Source of the DNA: Eledone cirrhosa
Taxonomy: Eukaryota
Length of the DNA stretch: 64,000 nucleotides
NCBI GenBank assembly: GCA_964016885.1
Contig: OZ024741.1
Coordinates: 176,948,001 to 177,012,000, forward strand
Direction: 5' to 3'
Both the position numbers and the translations under genes were made by a program. Below, one piece after another: positions 1-59,930 of this stretch. The notes under the pieces are model-generated. The model saw nothing but the letters and a program-made list of their open reading frames with translations. It was not told the DNA's origin and searched no databases. Position 1 is the first letter of the stretch; the number at the start of each line of letters is the position of its first letter.

Positions 1-560
1 GACGCGATGTGCTTTGTCCATGTTCATATTAGCACATTCGACCAATCCAATCGGAACCTGTCAGACAGTTGGACGCATCTGAGTATATATGCGAGGCTTT
101 AACACCTCCCGTTTCTTATCCGCTAGAACCACACAGTCACAGCTTCCATCCACGATTCCGTTCCAATTCCCCATTAACCTTAAAGGGTGGGATTTTTCCA
201 GGAAGGTCTACAGTCGCCTGAAGAAATCAGGCCGTTCTGCATTTGGCAGCGTATAAACACCCACTAGACTGAACGCATAGCCATCGCTGTTGGTCACAGC
301 CAACGCCACCAACTTACCGCGTGAGTCCTGGAGGATTGTCCGTATCACGAGATGCAGGAATTTCCGAAACAACACAGCGATTCCGACCACAAATGCCAAA
401 CGGCGTCGTAACCGCCGAAAATGGGTGCGGGGCCGTTTGCCTCGGAAATTATGGCCTCGTTGATGGCCATCCCATCTATTTTCATTGTCCTGAGATCGTT
501 GAGCAGATCTTCTTGCTTCCATGACGACTCCAGGCCAGGAGCAATTACACTGCTTACTCT
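1..560 (-). mobile_element. Degenerate L1/Tx1-type LINE ORF2 fragment (APE endonuclease region)
   Basis: ORF 208..762 ends RGKLVALAVTNSDGYAFSLVGVYTLPNAERPDFFRRL, resembling the 'GR.......L..VYAPN...R..FF..L' block of L1/Tx1 AP-endonucleases; frameshifted upstream and runs off the window start. Confidence 0.55.
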
Positions 561-3491: not shown

Positions 3492-3551
<60 letters not shown>

Positions 3552-3561
3552 AACCAGTAAG

Positions 3562-3655
3562 ACCCCGACAGCTGAGCTCAAGCCGTTTCGACGGCTAATC
3601 CTGGACTAAATGAAAATTTATCCTGGTATTTAAATAGCCGATCTTCTCAAGGGGT
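3562..3655 (-). ncRNA. Type I hammerhead ribozyme with U3-A8 core variant
   Basis: Minus strand: acccc-TTGAGAA-ga(t)cggcta...tagccgtc-GAAA-cggct tgagctc agctg-TC-ggggt; stems I-III all pair, triplet GUC. Confidence 0.75.
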
Positions 3656-3699
3656 AATTCCATATATGGTCAAAGTGATTGTCAAAAATCAGTAGTAAT

Positions 3700-3762
3700 C
3701 AGGTTTAGCCACCATCTCCCCTACTAATTGCAAATTAGTAGGGGAGATGGTGGCTAAACCTG
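3700..3762. repeat. Perfect 30-bp hairpin with 3-nt loop in the PLE-1 3' UTR
   Basis: caggtttagccaccatctcccctactaatt-gca-aattagtaggggagatggtggctaaacctg. Confidence 0.95.
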
Positions 3763-4775
3763 CCAGTAGGAGAAAGAGGGGAGGGGTGGAGTAGACCCAA
3801 TCAAGCGTTGGTAGTGCCAGCTACAGCTGGGCATGAGGTCAAAGAAGATACTGGGGAGGGGGAGGGGTATGAAGTCGGAACGGTAGGTAGAACAATGGGG
3901 GGTAAAAATATAAATGAAAGAAAAAATACTGAGAGTGAAGAAAAGCGAATAAGTGTAAAGAAAAAAGTAAAGCAAGTTCTACGACCTAGGTCTCTAGCTA
4001 TTGTTAGGCTAGAATAAATAAATAAATAAAGAAAGAAAGAAGTACAGAAATAAATAAAGAAATAACGAAATAAGTAGAAGAACTAGGTGGGACGAAATAG
4101 GCAAGGACCCTTTTTAAGAGGTATAAGTACGTAAATGATACGGTGACGGGTCAACAAAAGGGGCCAAAATACTAAAGAGACTACCACGAAATAAATAATA
4201 AAGGTTTCTAACCCGGTCACAATGCCAGCAACCACCCATGTCAGCAAAGTGAACTAGTACGAGATAATAATTCTGAGTCCCGAAAAAAATATATACTAAT
4301 GCTAACTCTAAAAGATCTAAAACAAGCTACATAAAAGTTCGTACGAAGTAAAGGTAGAATACGGAAAGATAAATTCAGAATCCACCCCGCCCAAAAGAAA
4401 AGCGAAGAAAGAAATACTGAAACGAAAAAAATAAGGCATAAGTGCCACTAAGAAATATAGAAGGCACGGCGAATAGTGGGAGCGGTCGGAAAAAGGGGGC
4501 AAGTATCCGGGGTCTAAACCAACTGCTATAAAAGGCGGAGTCCGCCAAATCTATCATAGACTAGGGGAGGGGGGGGGGGGGTACTAAGGCTACAAGGGGC
4601 CAAAGGGCAGCCTCGGGTGGGCGAGAAAAGACGCCGACAAAGGAGAAGAGCTGGGGTAGAAGGACTAAGGAGAGAAGGGGGAAGGAAATAAGGAAGCGAT
4701 AAAAGAATAAAAAGAAGATCTTACGTCTCCCTTGGCAAGCAGGGGTTACCCATTGCAAAATCGGCAAGTGGTGTG

Positions 4776-6734
4776 TTATAGCCCTAGTCTACCCCCCCCC
4801 CGGTCATTATGGGGTTTGAGGGCGAGGTAAGTCCTACGCAATCTATGTTTACATGCAGTAACCAGTTCATCTTTCTTGTTTAGGAGTTGGTCCGTCGAAA
4901 ACAGCATTTGTAAAGTTTCCTCCGAGCATAAATTGCACGGACGGCGTCCTCCCGTGTAAGAATTGGCTCTGGACAGTAATCTCCAAGTGAGATCATAGGT
5001 GATGTTGTTGTCCTTGAGGTCCCATATGTGGCCCGAAAGTGTAGTGGCGTGACGCCGGGCCGGGTTTCGGAAGGTATGTCTATGTTGGTATAGCCAGGTC
5101 TTGAAGTCACATGCGGTAAGTCCTATATAGGCTTTGTTGGAGGTATCCGTCCTCACGTTGCACTGGTAGATCACATTACGGTCTCTGCATCTATTGTCGA
5201 GTGGGCAAATGGATCTATCCGGACAGTTACACTTCCTGGTCGGTTCTCCACTGCTATTTAGGTTATTTCTGCCATCGGGGTTGAGTTTTTTGTTGTTAGA
5301 GGAGACGATGTTTTGTGCGAAGTTTGGTGTAGTGCTGTAAGAGAGTTTGATGGTATTTTTGTTAATTATGTTGTGGTAGCGGTGTTGTAATGGGAAGTGT
5401 TTTTCAATGAGCCTAAATAATAGTTTCCCGGTGGGAGTTGTCACCTCTGCATTGTGGGGAGGATTTAACCATGTTACATTGCGTGAGCGGCGGTGTCTCC
5501 TGCTGGTTCCGCTAATGGGAGCTGGACAGTAGGATATTTCCTCCCGGAAACCACTCCGCTTGAGGGCCTGGTTGTAATAAGGTGCATGTTCATCGAATAT
5601 CCGCTCATTAGCTGACAAACGGGATATGCGGAGGGAGATGGTTTTGACCAGGTTGTTTGTGATGTTCCTAGGGTGGTTTGATCGGCGGTTGATGTAGTGC
5701 AGATTGTCATTAGGTTTCCTGTATGGGTAGTACAGGTCGTTTTCGAGGTCGAGGGTCACGTCCAGGAAGTTTACTCGGGTCAGGGACGTTTGTAGGGTTA
5801 TTTTAAATCCCCAGTCGCGGAAGAATCTGATTAATTGTTTCCGGACCCGATCTGTACTACTGGGGTTGTACCCTTTAAGAGTAAGGAGCCCATCATCACG
5901 GTACAATCCACCACCGAATGCAGGAAACATATCAGTGAGTTTGGCTATTAGGAATAATCCTATAAGATCTGTGACCTCCGCCGAATCCGTGGCGCCCATG
6001 CTGACGTCGAAGGGTGAGTCGGGAGCTCTTTTTATCCATTTGGAGTCGTCAAAGAGTAAGACTGTCTTCCTGGCGTGGGGGAGGATTTTTCTTTCCTGGT
6101 CGGTGATGGGCACAAGTGTTTCGGCGAAGTCCAAGGCGGCAGTAAGTAGCGGTAAGGTGATTGAAGCATAGTAGCTCTCTATGTCGAACTGTATGAATTT
6201 AGTGTCTCGTTTATCCTCCATATTGCTGAACCATGAGATTACTTCCTGGGTGTTGATCCATAGGCTAAGTCGGGCATGTTGCTTGACTTTTGGTATCACG
6301 CGGTCTAGGATTTTTTTGATGATTCTCCCTATGTCGGACTTCGTTGGGTTAATAAGGCTGATAGAGGGTTTACGGTCAAAATCGGATTTATGGTCATTCA
6401 GTGTGAAGTATGGTGTCCGTGGGTCTAGAGGTTCCGTGCGGTCGGTGACCCCGAGGCTGGAGGTAATTTGTTGTCCATCTCGATTTATGTCCTCGATGCA
6501 AGAGTGGTTGGCCTTTTTATAGGTGGAGTTTAGGCTGCTCCTGATCAGTGTGTGGTATCTGTCAGGGTTGACAAAGTATAGGTTCCCAGTTTTATCCGAA
6601 TGCACCATGATGTCATTTGTGTTATCATACTCTGTTAAGTTGCTACGGAGTTTTTGTAGGAATCGGTTGTGTCTGGGTTTAAATTTAATGTTCTCGACCA
6701 GTTGGGAGAGGTCATTCTCGAAGGGGGAGAGCAA
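4776..6734 (-). CDS. PLE reverse transcriptase + GIY-YIG endonuclease (N-terminally truncated, uninterrupted frame)
   Basis: SDKTG motif; RT motifs [40 protein letters not shown]; Zn linker [15 protein letters not shown]; NVIYQC...AYIGLT; C-terminal [15 protein letters not shown]. Confidence 0.93.
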
Positions 6735-6840
6735 GGGGTTCGGGGGCGGAGATTTGTAGGTAATAAATCCGAATCTCTCCTTGATATATATTTATACATA
6801 CATATATATATTTATACATACATATGTATACATATATATA

Positions 6841-6977: not shown

Positions 6978-7361
6978 TTAGATGTGTTTATATATATATA
7001 TATGGGGGCGCTGTACGTGTAAGCATGGATCTGTGTTTTTGTGCTTTTATGTAGAGATATATGTATTTTTTTCACGCCGTGTTATGTATAGCACACATTT
7101 GTACGATCGAGAAATCTCGCGCCCTTTGCTAAATCTATTAACTGAACATTAAAACAAATATATAATTATCCAAACGAGCTTTTTAATGCAATAACACTTA
7201 GTTAAATAAATTAACGGCCAGAATAACATTACATTATGCTAATCAGGGAAAATGTTCTCATGAAATCATTATATTTAAGTGTACATAAGAGCTATATACC
7301 GTATCTCACTCCGTGGGAAGAAAATGCGTACAGGTTCATTCTGAATATATATATATATATA

Positions 7362-7958
7362 TAAGTTGAAAAAAAAAAAAATGAAAACGAAATTTCATTT
7401 CTCACTCTTAGTATGGCACTTACTTAAATGTAAGTATGTATGTATACGTACATACATATATGTATACAGACGTACAGTAGGATGCATATATATATATACA
7501 TATATATACATATATACATACAGGTACACATACATATATGCACGCATCAGTTTAGCGGACGCTTATTATAACGCCGCTTTGTTCGTTTGTAAACAAAACT
7601 GAACAGCCTGAATTTATGCCATACGGTGTTAAGGCAACCACGTCACCTTTTTGTTCAACACTGACACAGGAACGATGTACTACTTTCAAGCTTGTTAGCT
7701 ATCATCAGCACCGTTTACCCATCTGCCAGATAGTTGAACGTTCGAAAGTATATACTTTCCTTATGAAAATTAACGGCTGAGCAGCCTAATTTGCATATTG
7801 AGTGAGTTAAATCGGTCAGGCATACCGAAAACGATAAGTTGAAAAAAAAAAAAATGAAAACGAAATTTCATTTCTCTCTCTTAGTTTGGCACTTACTTAA
7901 ATGTAAGTATGTATGTATACGTACATACATATATGTATACAGACGTACAGTAGCATGC

Positions 7959-8021
<63 letters not shown>

Positions 8022-8487
8022 TATATACATATATACATACAGGTACACATACATATATGCACGCATCAGTTTAGCGGACGCTTATTATAACGCCGCTTTG
8101 TTCGTATGTAAACAAAACTGAACAGCCTGAATTTATGCCATACGGTGTTAAGGCAACCACGTCACCTTTTTGTTCAACACTGACACAGGAACGATGTACT
8201 AGTTTCAAGCTTGTTAGCTATAATCAGCACCGTTTACCCATCTGCCAGATAGTTGAACGTTCGAAAGTATATACTTTCCTTATGAAAATTAACGGCTGAG
8301 CAGCCTAATTTGCATATTGAGTGAGTTAAATCGGTCAGGCATACCGAAAACGATCAGTTGAAAAAAAAAAAATGAAAACGAAATTTCATTTCTTACTCTT
8401 AGTATGGCACTTACTTAAATGTAAGTATGCATGTATACGTACATACATATATGTATACAGACGTACAGTAGCATGCATATATATATA

Positions 8488-8553
<66 letters not shown>

Positions 8554-8677
8554 CATATATGCACGCATCAGTTTAGCGGACGCTTATTATAACGCCGCTT
8601 TGTTCGTTTGTAAACAAAACGGAACAGCCTGAATTTATGCCATACGGTGTTAAGGCAAGCACGTCACCTTTTTGTTC
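7362..8677 (-). mobile_element. Retrozyme-like tandem array A (~2.7 monomers, older and diverged)
   Basis: Same monomer as 32577-39987; units start near 7362, 7835 and 8355; hammerheads at 7671-7715 (GAAAG breaks stem III) and 8190-8234 (CTGATTA) each carry a substitution. Confidence 0.9.
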
Positions 8678-11545
8678 TGGTGGAAATAGAAATAGAAACA
8701 ACACAACTAACAATAACAATAGCACTAGTACACATAAAGCAGCAGCCTGGAACTCTACTTTTTATAATCCCTCCGATAAATCGTTCGACTTGCGACGAGC
8801 CCACGCCACGAATTTACCATTTAACAAACGCACGCAATTGCCGTCGCAGGTCGATGAACAAACAGAACCACAATTTAGTATAGCCAGATCCGAACTTAGA
8901 AATATTATAGAACAGTATAGCAAGAAGCATAATAGAATGGAGGCCCAGCAACTGGGAGAAAAATCTGCAAATGGCTTGCGTAAGCTCATGCAGCGCTCGC
9001 ATAATGGAGAGATAGCATGTTTTCCAGCAGACAAATCTGGCAGAATGTCGGTTGACAGTCTGCCAAACTACATTCAGGCAATACAACCCCACATCACCAA
9101 CACAAGAGAGGTAACACCACAGGAGCATGAGGATAGAGAAAAAGCCCTCAATGCCCATATGGTGATGTGAACGAATATAATGCAGCCCAACAAAAGGACT
9201 GCCAACAACTTCCAGGCCTGGAACAATGACGTGCCGGCGTTGTATGGGCTTCGAAAAGACCATAAAACGGGCAGTGACCCTGTCGCGGGACCACCAACAC
9301 GGCCAGTCCGTGGAGGTAACATTGCTAGTAACTACATACTGTCCTACTTCCTCTCCCTGTTCATACGCCCCATCATTGAAATGTCCCCAGATGTATGTGA
9401 CAGCACGGAGGACCTCCTCAGCAGAATCGGCGAGAGTAACCGATCTAGGGACCTAAAAGACTGCATAATATGTAGTATGGATGTTGTGTCCCTGTATCCA
9501 TCTATTGACGTGGATTTTGCTGTGGAGAAATGCGTAGAAATGATCAGTGAGAGCAATGTTGAGTTCCGTGGGATTGATACCAGTGAGCTGGGACTACTAC
9601 TTAAACTTACCTATAGTAATAATTACCTAGACACATATGACCTTAGCAACCTGTGCCCTACACGACCAGCAATAGGCAGACCACCTACCATTACTTCAAT
9701 GGCCAAGAAAACCCACACAGATAGATGGAACGGGTGGACGAGAGCCATACGGACACCCGAAAACAACGATAAACTGAAGAAAATGATTGCACATGCGGTG
9801 GGGGCCAGCATAAAACTAACCCTTAAGGAACATATGTTCAAATTTAATGGAAAAACATATGCCCAAGAGGAAGGAGCAGTCATTGGTGTTAGCATTGCAG
9901 GCGACATAGCTAACTTATTCATGGTATGGTGGGACAGTAGACTTAAACTTAAAGAACAATTAGAAGACCCCTTAACCCTGATAATGTACTCCCGCTACGT
10001 TGATGATATAAACATCGTAGTTAAGACACCCCCACTAGAGAAAAACTAGAGAAAAACACAATGGAAAGCATCCAGCAAATAGCTAACTCCATCCACTAGA
10101 GCATTAGAGTTACTATAGACTACCCAAGTAAACACCCCAACCATCGATTACCTGTACTAGACACAGAGCTCTGGTTAGATACCATTAATAACAAAAAACA
10201 AATCCTCCATTCCCATTATGCCAAACCCATGACTTCCAAACATCTGATTCACCGAAACTCGGCCGTTTCGGACCATACCAAAATCAACATACTGATTGCG
10301 GATTTGGTATGGGTGATGAGAAACGTGTCCCGCATGTGCAACACCGGAGAACTAGAGCGACACATACAACACTTCATCCACCGTATACAGTTCTCTGGCT
10401 ACAATCAGATAGATAAAATCAGAGTGTATAGAGGAGCTAGAACCAAATGGGAAAAAATGGTAAATAATGACACAAATGGGACCTGCCCCTTGTATAGGAG
10501 CAAATTTTGGAATAGAATAGAAAGAACTAGGAACAAGGCTAATAGAATAAATTCATGGTATGATAGCAATAAATACCAGAGTGTAATGTTCATCGATAGA
10601 ACCCCTAGAGGTGAATTAGCTTACAAATTTAGAAGGGCCCTAGATAAACATAAACTCGATATTAATATAGTAGAAAGACCAGGTACCTCCGTAAAAACAC
10701 TTATTAGCAAGACATACCCTTTTCAAAGACCCTCATGTATAGATAAGAAATGTATAACCTGCAAAATAAGCCCCCATATTAACTGTAAAACTAGAAATGT
10801 AGTGTATAGCATAAGATGTACTGAAGGACAATGTAGAGACAAACATATAGTGTACATAGGTGAGAGAGCTCGTAGTGTAGGAGAACGGATAAATGAACAC
10901 TGGCGAGACCTTCAAGATAGTAAAGAATCATCTGTACTCTACCAACATGCTAAAATAGAACACAAGGGTAAATTAGATAACATAGAAATAAAAATAGAAT
11001 CTACACACAGAAAAGACACAGAGGCAATGAACATAAAAGAATTACAACCAAAATTAAATAGAAAATATGAGTGGAACAGCAACATCACAACTTACAATTA
11101 AGGACAAAATGAATACACACACACACATAAAACAAACAACCAACCAGTAACATGTAAATAAAGAAATAAATAAATGAACATAAACACACACAGACACCCG
11201 GATGTTCTGCAGGCGCAGACTGAGCACACAACACACACACAGAAACAAAATGGCGTAGGACAACAAAGAGAGGCACAAAAACAAAGAAAGGAATCCCCAG
11301 TCACTGAAGAGGTCACAGAGTGTGTGACGAAAGAACTATGACAATATATAAACAACTATCTGGTTGTGGAACCAACCAATCGACCAGAAATTTATAAATT
11401 TATAAATTTATTATAAATTTATTAAGTGAATGCATGTGGTGCGTGTGTTTCTTATTGGCAACATAACCCTCCCAAAGTACAACAATATCGGTTTCAACAC
11501 ACGATTTCAGATAAAGAATCTTGCTAAACAAATTCAGAAACGAAA
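8678..11545 (+). mobile_element. Penelope-like element family 2, 5'-truncated and pseudogenised
   Basis: Broken ORFs 8678-9170 (PADKSG), 9180-10049 (DVVSLYPSI, QEEGAVIG, YSRYVDDI) and 10229-11101 (C..KKCITC, NVVYSIRC...VYIGE..RS..ER..EH); hammerhead in 3' UTR; same 3' terminus as the copy at 31379. Confidence 0.9.
11300..11342 (+). ncRNA. Minimal type I hammerhead in the PLE-2 3' end
   Basis: gtca-CTGAAGAG-gtcac agagtgt gtgac-GAAA-gaac-TA-tgac; triplet CUA; a degenerate copy lies on - at ~31588-31630. Confidence 0.7.
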
Positions 11546-11624
11546 TATATATGTATATATATTTATATATATATATGTGTGTGTGTGTGTGTACTGAATG
11601 AGTGTTTGTACACGCACACTCCCT

Positions 11625-32545: not shown

Positions 32546-40149
<7,604 letters not shown>

Positions 40150-40250
40150 TAAGATATTAAAAAATGGAAGACATCGTGATGTCTTCCAAAAGTAACGGTT
40201 GCATTTTGAAAGGGTATGTCAATATTTATTTATAAAACTGGTATATATTG

Positions 40251-52636: not shown

Positions 52637-55600
52637 AGTTGCATTTATCTTGCTTTATGTTCATACGAGTTATGAACAAGTCACAACCAGTGACCTCAAG
52701 AGACAACAAGGTCCGCCCTGTTCAAGAAAGAACATACATATTCACACATGCATCTTTAGTGTTTAGACTTGTGATGTACTTATATTGACAGAATCGTCCT
52801 TAGTATATGGGCAGTTCCCATTAGTACTATCTTTTGTATTTCTCCTATACGCGGGTTTCCTGGGATTTGCGATATGTAATCATTAGACCCCTTAGGTATC
52901 ATTCCCAGAGCGCCTACAACAACTGGTATTGTTTTAGTTCTCAATTTCCACATTTTTCCAATTTCTATCTCCAGGTCCTTATACTTGCTCAATTTTTCAA
53001 ATGTTTTTATAGATACATTCTTGTCTATTGGAACAGACATATCAATTAGCAGGCATACCCTCTTTTGAAAGTCTTTCAATATTATATCAGGTCTGTTTGC
53101 ATCTATTTTCGGTCTGTTTGGATGCTAAAGTTCCACAAGATTGAGATGTGATCTTTTTCAAGTATGGGAGGTGGTTGATGCTCCCACCAATTCTTTTGAT
53201 GGGGCAGGTCAAAATGCTTACACATTATCCAATGTATGTATTGTGCAGCTCTGTCATGCCTGTTTAGGTATTCGGTTGGAGCTATAGGACTGCACATTAA
53301 AATTATATGGTCAATGGTCTCTGGTTGTTTTTTGCATACACGGCATAATGGGCTGCACCCATTTTTTATTATGTTGGCCTTGGTAATTTTTTGTTGGCAG
53401 ACACTGATCTTGTGCCGATATAATCAGTCCTTTAGTCTCCAATTTCAGTCCAGAGGATGCCAACCACTGATGGGTTAAAGTTTTGTCAACATCAGGATTG
53501 TTAGCTCTTTCTGGGTATTTTCCATACAGAGGCTTTTCTTGCCATTTCTTAGCCAGTTTCTGTAGAAGTTCTTTCTTTGCAGTTACTTTTACCTGCTTTG
53601 CTTTTTCTGTGTTTTCCATTTCAGCAGTAAATGGGACTTCTGAAATCTGTAGTCCATTACTGTATCTTTGTGCATCTTTTGTAATGGAATATGATCTTTT
53701 GATGCTTTCGTGTTTCAAAACGAGTTTGATCATCCAATCATGTGATTCCCTTAGATATGTAGATAATCCAATTGTTGCAGTTTTCAACGCACTGTCTAAC
53801 TGGATTAACCCACGTCCTCCTTCTTTCCTAGGGAGATATATTCTATCTATATCTGCCTTAGGGTGATGCATTCTGTGCATGGTTAAACATTTTCGAATTT
53901 GTGTATCGAGCCTACGGATCTCTGTGCTTGACCAGTTGATGACATTGTAACTGTAGGTTACTACTGGTATGGCAAGCGTGTTTATGGTATCGATCCTATT
54001 CCTTGCATTCAATTCCGTTCTTAAGATTGCTCTTACTCTGCGGTAACATTCCTTCCTTATCCTTTCCCTCATTGTCTAGTGCTTGATTCCGTCTCCTTCA
54101 CAAACACCTAGATATTTGTAAGTTTTTTCTTGATCAAGTTCTCTTATCATGTTCCCCTGATCGTGATTAATGTCTGAACTCTTCAGCAGCTTTCCTCTGG
54201 TGAACGTTGCTTTGGCGAATTTATCTAGTCCAAACTCCATTTTAATATCATCACTGAACTGCTTCACAGTGGATAATAGCCCTTGCCCTTGTTCATCATT
54301 TTTTGCAAATAGTTTCCGGTCATCCATGTAGAACAAGTGATTAATGGTTTTGTCATAGACTTTATATCCATGTTTTGTTTCATTGAGCATTTTACTTAAT
54401 GGCATAAGTGCGATGCAGAATAAAAGCGGTGATAAAGAGTCACCCTGAAAAATTCCACAATTAATATTAACTTCTCCAGCTTCCAGTGATATTGTTTCAC
54501 TATTCAAAAGGAGAGGCGTTTTCCATGTCTTCATACTGAATGACAAAAAACCTCCTGACAACGGGGGATATTTTGAAAATCTCTAAACATTTTTCAATCC
54601 AATTGTGTGGCAAACTATCGAATGCTTTTTTATAATCTATCGAAGCAATCGATAGATTTTTGTGTCTATTATGACAATCTTCTAGTATCATTTTGTTAAC
54701 CAAAAGCTGATCCTTACAGCCATATGAGCCTCGTTTACACCATTTCTGCTCAATGGGAAATAGGTCATTTGTTATCAGGTGGTCAGTTAGGACTGATGTT
54801 AAAATGTTATACATTGTGGTCAAGCAAGTTATCGGTCTGTAATTTTGGGGATTGTTTGTCTCATCATTCTTCGGAAGCAGGAATGTAATGCCGTTAATTA
54901 GCCATGATGGTATCTTTTCTGGCTCCTTAACTATTTCATTGTAAAGTTGGGCTAACAACTCATGAGACTCTGCGAAGGCATTTATCCAAAAATTTTGTAT
55001 TTTGTCTTTTCGAGGGGATTTCCATTTGCTGGTTTTTCTTAGAGCCAAGCGCAACTGTTCAACTGTTATATTTTCCCATATTTGTTCCTCAAGGTGAGCT
55101 GTATCTTTCATTTGTCTGTCTATCCATGGGGCATGTATGTTATGAACTTTTTCTTCGGCCCAGATCTTTTCCCAGAATTCTTGCACTTCCTCCTTGGGTG
55201 GTATTGATTTAGCAGTTATTGTTGACTTACCAATTTTGCTCTAGAAGTTTCTTTGGTTGTTTTTGAACATATTATTGTCCTTATAGAATCTAGATCGTTT
55301 TTCAAAGCGCCTTATACGAGCAGCTTTGGCCGACAATTTTTGCTTGATTATTTCTATCAGCATGTCTATGTCACTTGTTGATTTTATACTGTACTTTCTT
55401 TTCAATTTTCTAAGTTTAGTTTGTTTAACATGTTCACCTACTTTATAGTTTGTTAAAATTTCTGTCAGATCGGAGAAGGTTTATTTGGCGATTGATGTTC
55501 TCTTGCCAAGTGGATTTCTTGTTGGAATTCCTTTGTTTTTCATCTTCACTCCACACAAGTGAGTGGTGAATTTAGCCGATGCATAATAGAGATGTATTAA

Positions 55601-56600
55601 ATCAGTAATGTTTAGTTTGTTTGTGATGATAATGTTTTTGAGAATTATGTTAGTCTTGTGTATTATCTTTTGGTTCTGTTTGGATCTTCTGGATCTTAGG
55701 GAGGGTGTCTCGTTGCCCCATGTCAGATTCTTTCATTTTCATCCATTTGATCATAATTTCATCCTTCAAGTTGGCTAGTTTATTCTCATTCATTTCTTTA
55801 TCATTTACGATCTCATTATTTTCATTTGGGTTTCATCTTGAGCATGCATTCCCTCCACTTTTTCGATCCTTTCTTTAATTTGTTCTGTTGCCAGTGATTC
55901 CGCCCCAACCCTGGGATTCGAAGTGTTACACTTTACCTCGTTTTCACTGACACATATTTCATTTTCTCTTCGCTGACTTTGTGCTAATAGCTTGATCTGA
56001 TCAATTTCTATATCAGTTAGTAACTTTTTTCTTACGATATTTCTTCGTATATTGGCTAGTTTGTTACTGTCAATATAGCCCCTGTTTTCGGGATGTTTCT
56101 TTTTCCAGTTGATATATGTCTGTTCTGTATTCGATGTATTTGATGGGCAGTACATGGCAGTGTAGAAATCTCAAGGACTTCTTTATTATCTTCCCTTGAC
56201 CATTTTTCTCTCTTTTTCTCTGGATTTCTTGGTGGTGAGCATGGAGGGCCAACAGTAGGAGTATTCCGGTTATGGGAGGTCTCCAGCTCCGAAGTGATGG
56301 GAAGGTTTGAACCATTAGCTGATTTTTCGACCCCTGTCTGGTTTCTCTCTGAGGGCCGCGGCCCTTTTTTACCCGGGTGACGGCCGATCCGGTATGAGAT
56401 TTTATCATTAGACATTTACTTTATTTTGTCGCGTTTTATCTTTATCCGGCAAGGGGTAATCATTTCGTGTTACCACTTCTAGAACGAGTGTCAACCAAGA
56501 CTAGAGGGGTCGTTCTCCCCTAGAGACACGGCTATTCCCCGCCGGCCGCCATCCCGGTATTTCATGGTCAAGGGGTTTTCTTTTTTGTTGTTTTTTTTAA
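52636..56600 (-). mobile_element. Near full-length R4/Dong-clade non-LTR retrotransposon (RT + restriction-like endonuclease), frameshifted
   Basis: ORF pieces 56415-52780: NYRPITCL, DYKKAFDS, GIFQGDSLSPLLF, LFYMDD, YKYLG, EGGRGL, RHD..H, PD..D..VP, EK..KY.DL, IPVVVGALG; 3' end abuts (TAA)n at 52602-52635, the known Dong target. Confidence 0.9.
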
Positions 56601-57639: not shown

Positions 57640-59930
57640 GTTGGTGAAGCCACGCTTCTTATCTCCTGCAGTTTTTATTTCAACGTTTTACCTCGTTTTC
57701 AACCCTTCTAAACCTTTTATTCAAGTTTTAAATTTGATAAAAGTTTAGAAGAATTTACCCACCTAATACAGGGGTTCACTCGTAAATAATACGGCACCCC
57801 TTTACGGGGTGTCGTATTTGTGTAAAAATATTTTTTGAAAAATATTTCAACATGGATAATACAAGAAACAGAGAGAGCGCTGTCAGACAACACAGTGAGA
57901 GGGAGACTTTATCAGCATATCAACAAGACAGCGTTCTAGAGGAAAAGAAGATTGTTACAGATTTAAAATTACCAAATATCTCTAACACAAACAACACCAA
58001 CAATAACACCAACAACAACACCAAAAACAACACCATCAATAACAACAGCAACAACAAAAATAACAGTGGTAAATTCGAGAACGACAATAACAATGACAAT
58101 AACAACAGCCACAACAACAATAATAGTAGGAACAGTATAAACAAAAACAACAATAATAACAACAGCCACAATAACAGTAACAACAGTAACAGTAGCAACG
58201 AAAACAACACCAACAACACCTACAACTGTACCAACGAAAACATCAACAATGACATCGATACCTGTAACAGCGATCTCAGCACCACCAGTAAGACCAGTAG
58301 CGGCAGCAATAGTGGTGTTGCTGAAAAAGGGACCACTTCTTTTGCAGGTGTCGCCCGAAATATCGAGACAGTGTTAGTCACAGAGGAGGAGATGGCAGTA
58401 GCAAGGGCCATGGTGACAAGAAGCGCCAATAGGGTCTCCCTGAAATCTCCACCCGATTTTTTTAACTACCAGCAGCTACGGACAGTGACTTACCGCACCG
58501 TAAGCAAAATGTCACATCGAGTGGAGAGAGCCACGGAGGCTCAAATCCAAAGTGCCTTGAGGTGCGTCTGGGCACGCAAAACCCATGTCACCAGAGGCAG
58601 AAAGTACGCCGCAGTAGACGTACTTTTCGCCACCCCCGGGAAGCAAAGTCTCACTCTTTGGAAACCCTAAAGAATGATGAGATAGTCTTGGTGCCCTCCT
58701 ATTGCGGGCAGAACATTGTGAGGGTCAAAATGGCCCAGGTCCCACGGACGTGCCCATACCTTGGCTGGCCGCGTCTGTCCTTGTTGGAATCGAGGACAGG
58801 ACGACCATCCTGCAAGTAGAGAAAATAGGGAAAGAGAACTGGTCAGGTATAGGCATGCAAATGCTTATACAAACTGACCAGGAATGTATCGACGCTATCC
58901 CCGATATCATAGACATCGAGGAAGGACTCGAACTCCCTATAAGCGTTGAAGGAAGACGGCCAAAATGTTATCTCTGTGGGTCGAGGGGACACCTAGGGGC
59001 ATTTTGCCCGCAGAAGACAGCGAATAAGGAGGCCCCTCTCCTTCGAATACCTGGTCCGCTGCTGAAGCCCCTTCCACGGTGAGTAGAATGGCAACGTCCT
59101 TGGCACCCGTACAAAGGCCACGGACAACTAAAGCAGCAGCATCAGTGGCGGCAACGCCAATAGCTACATTTGAAGTAGCTATACCAGCAACAACATTGCC
59201 GAAGAGGGCTCCACTACCACCACCAACAGCCGTGGAACACATACCCTTCCCAGATGCCACGGAATCCGACATGGAGTTTAAGGCGGGAGTGAAGTCGCAA
59301 ACGGTCTGCCACAACAAAAAAAAGAAAAAAACCCTTAGATTCACCCTCCAAAAGCGAAGGCACACAAAGAGGGGTAAAGGCAGCAAGGAAACTTGCAGCA
59401 ACACCAACATCATCACCATCACTACCACAAGCACTACTGACAACCATAACTAAACCAACACCAGCATCACCAAAAACACCAACAACGCAAACAAAACAAA
59501 ACACACACACAAAACAGCAACAAGAAGAAAACAGCAACAAAATCACCCCCCCCCCCCCCCCCCAAAAAAAAAAGATCACAGCCATAAACATGGCAAAAAA
59601 AGAACTCATACAATATATAAAGCAGCACACAAACATCACAGAAAAAAACTACTACACCCCACCAACACCAAGAACTCTCCCGACAAACATAAGCATCATT
59701 GAAATCTCAATAGAACAATACAAACCTTTAAAACAAAAATTGCCCAACGCAGTTGGAGACTTCAGAGGGTTGGTTACCAAGAGGATATACACTGACGTCC
59801 TCTTGGAATCACCCATGACCAGCCAAATGGACGGTTCTACTGTCCCTTCACCAAACAATCAAGGTAAGTGACCCTTTCTCACTTGCCCCGTTTCTCATCC
59901 AACATGGCGGTACTCAGAATAGGCAATAAA
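57640..59930 (+). mobile_element. L1/Tx1-type LINE 5' part: frameshifted ORF1 with Asn-rich N-terminus and CCHC knuckle, truncated at the ORF2 start
   Basis: 57852-58670 and 58702-59082: VEGRRPKCYLCGSRGHLGAFCP; probable ORF2 start CCAACATGGCGGTACTCAGAATAGGC (MAVLRIG) at 59904. Confidence 0.65.

Follow-up and report, generated by a model that had tools for sequence, protein, structure and literature searches.

The region analysed here is a stretch of 64,000 nucleotides of the Eledone cirrhosa genome (assembly GCA_964016885.1, contig OZ024741.1, forward-strand positions 176,948,001 to 177,012,000; hereafter, the window), in which a tandemly repeated monomer of 469-477 nt, its length varying with that of an internal TA run, occurs in two places. 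Monomer positions are numbered such that position 1 is the first base after a predicted hammerhead ribozyme cut. Array A (7362..8677, minus strand) is a single arm of about 2.8 monomers with its 5' end at position 22 (8677) and its 3' end at position 313, which we call the long site, joined at 7361/7362 to a (TA)n tract at 7346-7361. Array B consists of two arms arranged head to head. The left, inverted arm (32577..37575, minus strand; about 10.5 monomers) begins at position 11 (37575) and ends, joined to (TA)n, at a short site at positions ~247-251 (at 32577), and the right arm (37577..39987, plus strand; 5.1 monomers) begins at position 251 and ends at the long site, joined to (TA)n at 39985-40151. 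The short terminus (~251) and the long one (313) are separated by roughly 62 nt, a 'tail' (39925..39987, plus strand). The 5' end of array A abuts the middle of a Penelope-like open reading frame without microhomology and may, for this reason, be a secondary breakpoint. The monomer is non-coding, the only long frames being those that run through the TA repeat. Like animal non-LTR retrozymes, the repeat is dispersed, present in high copy number, without LTRs and without a coding frame, and it lacks the RT and GIY-YIG open reading frame of its own that characterizes an autonomous Penelope-like element.

Sequence inspection and pattern scan revealed a type I hammerhead motif in each monomer, AACGGUG-CUGAUGA-stem II-GAAACUAGUA/CAUCGUU (the slash marks the predicted cut), in which CAUCGUU pairs with AACGGUG to form stem I. 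One such copy in array B (38227..38271, plus strand; predicted cut between 38264 and 38265) comprises, according to the pattern scan and folding, a 7-bp stem I, CUGAUGA, a 4-bp stem II, GAAA, a one-pair stem III and a palindromic ACUAGU. The core is intact in 15 copies in array B, and the two hammerheads of array A carry one substitution each (CUGAUUA and GAAAGUAGUA); an Rfam scan of the window produced no matches at the gathering score. The core string is unchanged in 283 of 310 units, and conservation of the catalytic core reaches 99.5%, compared with 96.7% elsewhere in the monomer. When the motif of a free monomer is folded, a misfold that pairs the core (-9.5 kcal/mol) is predicted to be preferred over hammerhead-like folds (-7.4 and -2.0 kcal/mol). 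The palindrome in the hammerhead loop can pair between two motifs (predicted -6.8 kcal/mol), and such pairing is described for the weak amphibian hammerhead type (PMC7229834).

The sequence joined head to head with array A belongs to a 5'-truncated, broken Penelope-like element (8678..11548, plus strand), which encodes an RT with a DKG motif, a Cys-rich linker and a GIY-YIG-like end. Its RVT_1 match (E = 4.7e-5, below the Pfam cut-off) is the sole Pfam match among four neighbouring frames. The element has its own minimal hammerhead (~11300-11342) and comes from a family that is young, its copies being 98% identical over 283 nt among the 40 scored out of 1,716 candidates, and that includes a 1,017-codon frame in another locus (L215). 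In 11 other copies, the family continues upstream with other sequence. Family copies end at the equivalent of window position 11488 or 11548, 60 nt apart and each at (TA)n, and five loci (L058, L099, L116, L147 and L155) contain one of each end, head to head. A second Penelope-like RT/endonuclease frame, from a different family (4779..6791, minus strand; 671 codons), was recognized by its motifs by eye, with no Pfam match. The 3' end of this family lies at (TA)n near 3549, short paired end copies are common in the fetched loci, and a pattern search found no hammerhead core in 3549-4778 or 4779-6791. Comparison of the monomer with the ends of these two neighbouring Penelope families detected no significant likeness, and no pLTR relative of the retrozyme family was found among the two; therefore, the element at 8678..11548 exemplifies the layout but is not a proven partner of the retrozyme. 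Both this element and array A carry the long end of their family, unlike the usual pairing of a long with a short end, so their join may represent two insertions brought together by a deletion, or a two-template event. Elsewhere, in locus L041 (4357-4400), a second retrozyme long arm is directly joined to a 44-nt inverted end of the Penelope family at 3549-6791, possibly, as a two-template insertion. Six-frame translation, read by eye, additionally identified fragments of a LINE-type RT frame (53314-56170, minus strand) and of an Asn-rich gag-like frame (57786-59868, plus strand).

Exact matches across the 3.0-Gb genome number 10,529 for a 22-mer taken from the monomer and 793 for the junction ..CAACTTA/(TA)n, the latter bearing out the 3' terminus at CAACUUA predicted in a preliminary description of this locus. 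From the matches listed, all on one contig (C1), we drew 179 loci, namely, 49 clusters from the 22-mer list, 90 regions from the junction list and 40 from a short-end pattern, and retained 178 after dropping L154 as a duplicate of L153; no locus was selected by its 5' end. The members of this pair, and likewise those of the pair L004/L005, have the same arm layout and are likely segmental duplications. The short-end pattern matched 4,755 times compared with 1,268 for the control, but this number is an overcount, given that about 9 of the 40 loci chosen by it contained no arm of the 470-nt retrozyme family at the anchor. Arms were aligned to the monomer with BLAST, and chaining bridged the TA run.

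Array A and the right arm of array B were confirmed to share a 3' end, both terminating at position 313 followed by (TA)n. The fixed internal priming site deduced from this coincidence is supported by the genomic sample, although as one half of the arrangement only: there are two sites, ~313 and ~251, one for each arm. Among the 49 loci that were not picked by their end, 40 of 75 3' ends fall at positions 301-313 and 27 at 236-258. An inverted, head-to-head, 5'-truncated copy accompanies 74 of 117 long-end insertions, the other 43 having no detected partner arm. The 118 head-to-head pairs include 87 that combine a long with a short end, none with two long ends, and two with two short ends, both doubtful; the remaining 29 have an end in the inner TA run, at another position or at the edge of a locus. 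Outside the long class, 94 of 111 TA-joined ends map to 241-258, whereas no more than 15 fall at the RNA's own TA run, which matches the target best, so that the sites appear to be chosen by the enzyme and not by pairing alone. Folding places the short site in the loop of an ACUUAC/GUAAGU hairpin and the long site just past a second hairpin and a U run (z -3.2). The copies are joined to (TA)n, in keeping with the AT-rich or (TA)n targets of Penelope-like insertions, and a target-site duplication would be indistinguishable within (TA)n.

Instead of a second DNA end priming on the RNA, the second arm could stem from the first cDNA, which would either fold back and prime itself or serve for second-strand synthesis; an antisense template, as has been proposed for Penelope (PMC3846280), is a further variant. 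Palindromic junctions at four loci (388/388 in L040, 214/214 in L058, 244/244 in L084 and 204/204 in L096) are of the kind such a process would leave, and the common haplotype of the arms of an insertion, discussed below, is compatible with it. Nevertheless, we consider this origin unlikely: most junctions join unrelated positions, the lengths of the two arms are uncorrelated (rho 0.02, 89 pairs), and the inverted arm has a fixed (TA)n-joined end of its own. Furthermore, an inverted arm that exceeds the direct one in length, such as that of array B (10.5 compared with 5.1 monomers), cannot come from fold-back copying.

In classical twin priming, known from L1, a second primer binds wherever homology happens to occur and thereby blocks the first cDNA. 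Array B appears to conform to this scheme, the outer end of its left arm (~247-251) exactly meeting the start of its right arm (251), and 11 partnered long arms end at 241-262, in excess of the 5.0 expected (P = 0.014, uncorrected). However, the second site is fixed, as opposed to being set by chance homology or by the RNA's own TA run, and the long arm extends beyond it in 75 of 89 pairs. Twin priming of this type is thus largely excluded as a general rule and, overall, quite improbable, although blocking may account for the other 14 of the 89 pairs, where long arms are at most 70 nt. The exact fit in array B was considered as a family rule and rejected on the same count.

Turning to the 5' ends, the preliminary description had correctly placed that of array A 21 nt and that of the left arm of array B 10 nt past the predicted cut, and both ends are confirmed; a third, however, at 37577 in the right arm of array B, had been overlooked, and it lies at position 251, far from the cut. 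For the window ends alone, the chance of two out of two falling in 25 of 469 positions is P = 0.003, and that of at least two out of three is P = 0.008, values that lose weight because the near-cut zone was picked after the fact and the pattern does not replicate in the genomic sample. The main test covered 234 TA-joined arms with at least 90% identity; masking of the low-complexity positions 126-222 set aside 63 ends and left 171, for which expected counts assume a uniform stop rate per base copied. These ends are scattered, without a peak just 3' of GUA in the 178-locus sample: 5 of the 171 fall in +1..25 (11.7 expected), one falls in +1..10 (4.6 expected), and none falls in +1..8. A narrower mask (174 arms) gave 5 ends in +1..25 compared with 8.5 expected, and the 46 tightest young junctions gave 3 of 81. 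Moreover, the arms pass the cut site 292 times, 152 of the 234 crossing at least one cut and 54 at least two. A linear RNA cut at both ends cannot yield arms that cross the cut; hence the footprint of in vivo self-cleavage that the two window ends had been taken to represent is absent, save for a possible minor class considered next.

It is accordingly highly improbable that the hammerhead cuts in vivo and sets the template's 5' end, with the cDNA running off just after the cut. The conserved catalytic core and the window ends at positions 11 and 22 count in favour of such run-off, as does a small cluster at +9..14 (a 7-nt window that takes in 6 of 192 ends, older copies included), which contains the end of array B and covers all three sub-+26 ends of the tight young junctions. 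However, 17% of 7-nt windows hold at least six ends, the fullest (251-257) containing 11, and the predicted preference of the free monomer for the misfold also counts against run-off. As the dominant effect, run-off is refuted by the deficit of ends near the cut and by the many crossings; run-off ends, cut back by about 10 nt, could make up no more than a few per cent of the total. The closeness of the two window 5' ends to the cut is chance. Elsewhere on the monomer, 21 5' ends fall in the bin 51-75 (12.6 expected, P = 0.02) and 3 in the bin 426-450, over the 5' strand of the hammerhead (11.2 expected), both uncorrected for the roughly 15 bins examined.

Variation among arms and units bears on the nature of the template. 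On average, the sequence difference is 1.7% between the two arms of one insertion, compared with 5.9% to other insertions (42 pairs); an arm's own partner is the closest or tied in 24 of the 42, and an arm of another insertion is closer in 18. Units differ by a median of 0.67% within an array and 3.2% between arrays (36 arrays), and the 17 mapped units of array B show three single differences. Two haplotypes alternate strictly as ABAB in L084 (507-6501) and roughly so in L151 (848-2916), making these arrays candidate records of a dimeric RNA circle. Several arrays are internally mixed: within-array difference reaches 2-5% in eight of the 36, mixing is seen in L165, L194 and L087, and in L165 and L194 minor variants are common to both arms. 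Judging from these patterns, the homogeneous and ABAB arrays would fit a monomer or dimer circle that is copied repeatedly, and the mixed arrays would fit a linear multimeric template better than a monomer circle. We lean slightly towards a monomer or dimer circle as the template; an uncut linear multimer is a serious candidate, with odds somewhat short of even. Rare variants common to the units of one insertion show more A>G than T>C changes in the RNA sense (20 compared with 8, P = 0.03), hinting weakly at a stage in which the RNA is edited; among singleton variants the numbers are 31 and 32, and a per-column A>G test gave P = 0.15. That the arrays are a DNA-level satellite generated by slippage or unequal exchange with recombinational inversion, or else assembly artefacts, is scarcely credible, for although common variants arranged in blocks, seen in L133 as well as L169, and a three-unit spacing that recurs in L165 suggest some local duplication, the arrays are short and dispersed, with two fixed (TA)n ends and a strict long-plus-short polarity, and a coding Penelope family has the same layout.

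Taken together, the arrays carry the insertion signature of Penelope-like elements, that is, two fixed sites combined with scattered 5' truncation. We conclude, with a probability of roughly 75%, that they represent a non-LTR retrozyme whose RNA, circular or an uncut multimer, is copied by a borrowed RT of the Penelope type. Under this scenario, the array would be transcribed, and the hammerhead would either cut rarely or release a product that closes into a circle, which in both cases could provide a template without a fixed 5' end. A Penelope RT-endonuclease would nick both strands of AT-rich DNA, as in vitro work suggests (PMC11167929), and the RT would likely use both ends of the cut (TA)n target for priming, each end at a different one of the two sites on a single RNA. 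In keeping with what is seen in the genomic copies, one arm would start at ~313 and its counterpart at ~251, each with a (TA)n junction, and the arms, of one haplotype, would cross the cut freely and stop at scattered positions. The two cDNA ends would then be joined head to head, producing the inverted layout.

A more specific version, which we offer tentatively, is that a dimer of the Penelope-type enzyme on a single ribozyme-made RNA circle primes the two DNA ends at the two fixed sites, and both arms are made by rolling copying. If so, the long-plus-short pairing, the single-haplotype arms and the ABAB arrays would constitute a genomic record of circle-templated retrotransposition, and the Penelope tail would reflect a division of labour between two subunits.

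These features can be compared with those of several known systems. Animal retrozymes were defined, and copying of their circles by Penelope-type enzymes was proposed, in PMC7229834, and a recent preprint ties retrozymes to pLTRs by sequence (bioRxiv 10.64898/2026.07.22.740005). Like the non-LTR retrozymes in these descriptions, the family reported here is built of tandem monomers that are non-coding and contain a single type I hammerhead; it occurs in thousands of copies and in a genome that also contains Penelope-like elements, and its weak stem III and palindromic loop resemble the axolotl and newt type. It differs from the animal retrozymes described there in its 470-nt monomer with an inner TA run. 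For animal retrozymes, RNA, cleavage and circles have been demonstrated, whereas the present family is described from its genomic copies; conversely, the termini, inverted arms and two fixed ends mapped here are unmapped in the accessible text of the two retrozyme descriptions. A literature search covering the main texts of openly available articles found no mapping of retrozyme termini or inverted arms.

Penelope-like elements, for their part, are described as forming partial tandems with an inverted 5'-truncated copy and a 30-40-bp tail that is often one-sided (PMC8557442, PMC3846280). The arrays resemble those elements that bear an endonuclease in their partial tandems, head-to-head inverted copy, one-sided tail, (TA)n targets and hammerhead, and differ in the lack of an open reading frame, in a tail of about 62 nt as opposed to 30-40, and in arms many monomers long. 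The counts given above, 87 long-plus-short and no long-plus-long pairs, put a number on the one-sidedness of a Penelope-type tail. Because the layout was already known for Penelope-like elements, the gain in this respect is modest.

The closest biochemical parallel is Poseidon of Anolis (PAc), for which PMC11167929 reports that, in vitro, the protein cleaves AT-rich DNA on both strands and extends each of them, that two internal RNA start sites near a stem-loop define the tail, and that hammerhead mutants insert equally well, with no RNA reads ending at the cut. An AT-rich target, extension of both strands and two internal start sites near a stem-loop fit the arrays here as well, and the arms cross the cut. 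PAc, however, is autonomous and the present retrozyme is non-coding; furthermore, the PAc start sites are alike on both strands, whereas the two arms here almost always use different sites, so that the strict long-plus-short pairing is unexplained by the in vitro results as reported in PMC11167929. The missing 5' footprint agrees with the dispensability, in vitro, of the hammerhead cut for Penelope reverse transcription. The counts of ends link an animal retrozyme to the Penelope machinery by insertion structure and not by sequence likeness, and they single out the RNA sites at ~251 and ~313, together with (TA)n as the target, on which priming could be assayed directly.

Two observations on other repeats concern the same ends. 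An older family, related at 80-88% identity and differing in its inner segment, is present in L059, L115, L166, L167 and L202; its long end lies near position 303 (..TTTTCC..), and L202 contains at least nine tandem units. In five further loci (L170, L173, L196, L201 and L205), other short repeat families end in ..CATACTTACAT(T)TA/(TA)n, like the short site, and this end may be a shared priming signal.
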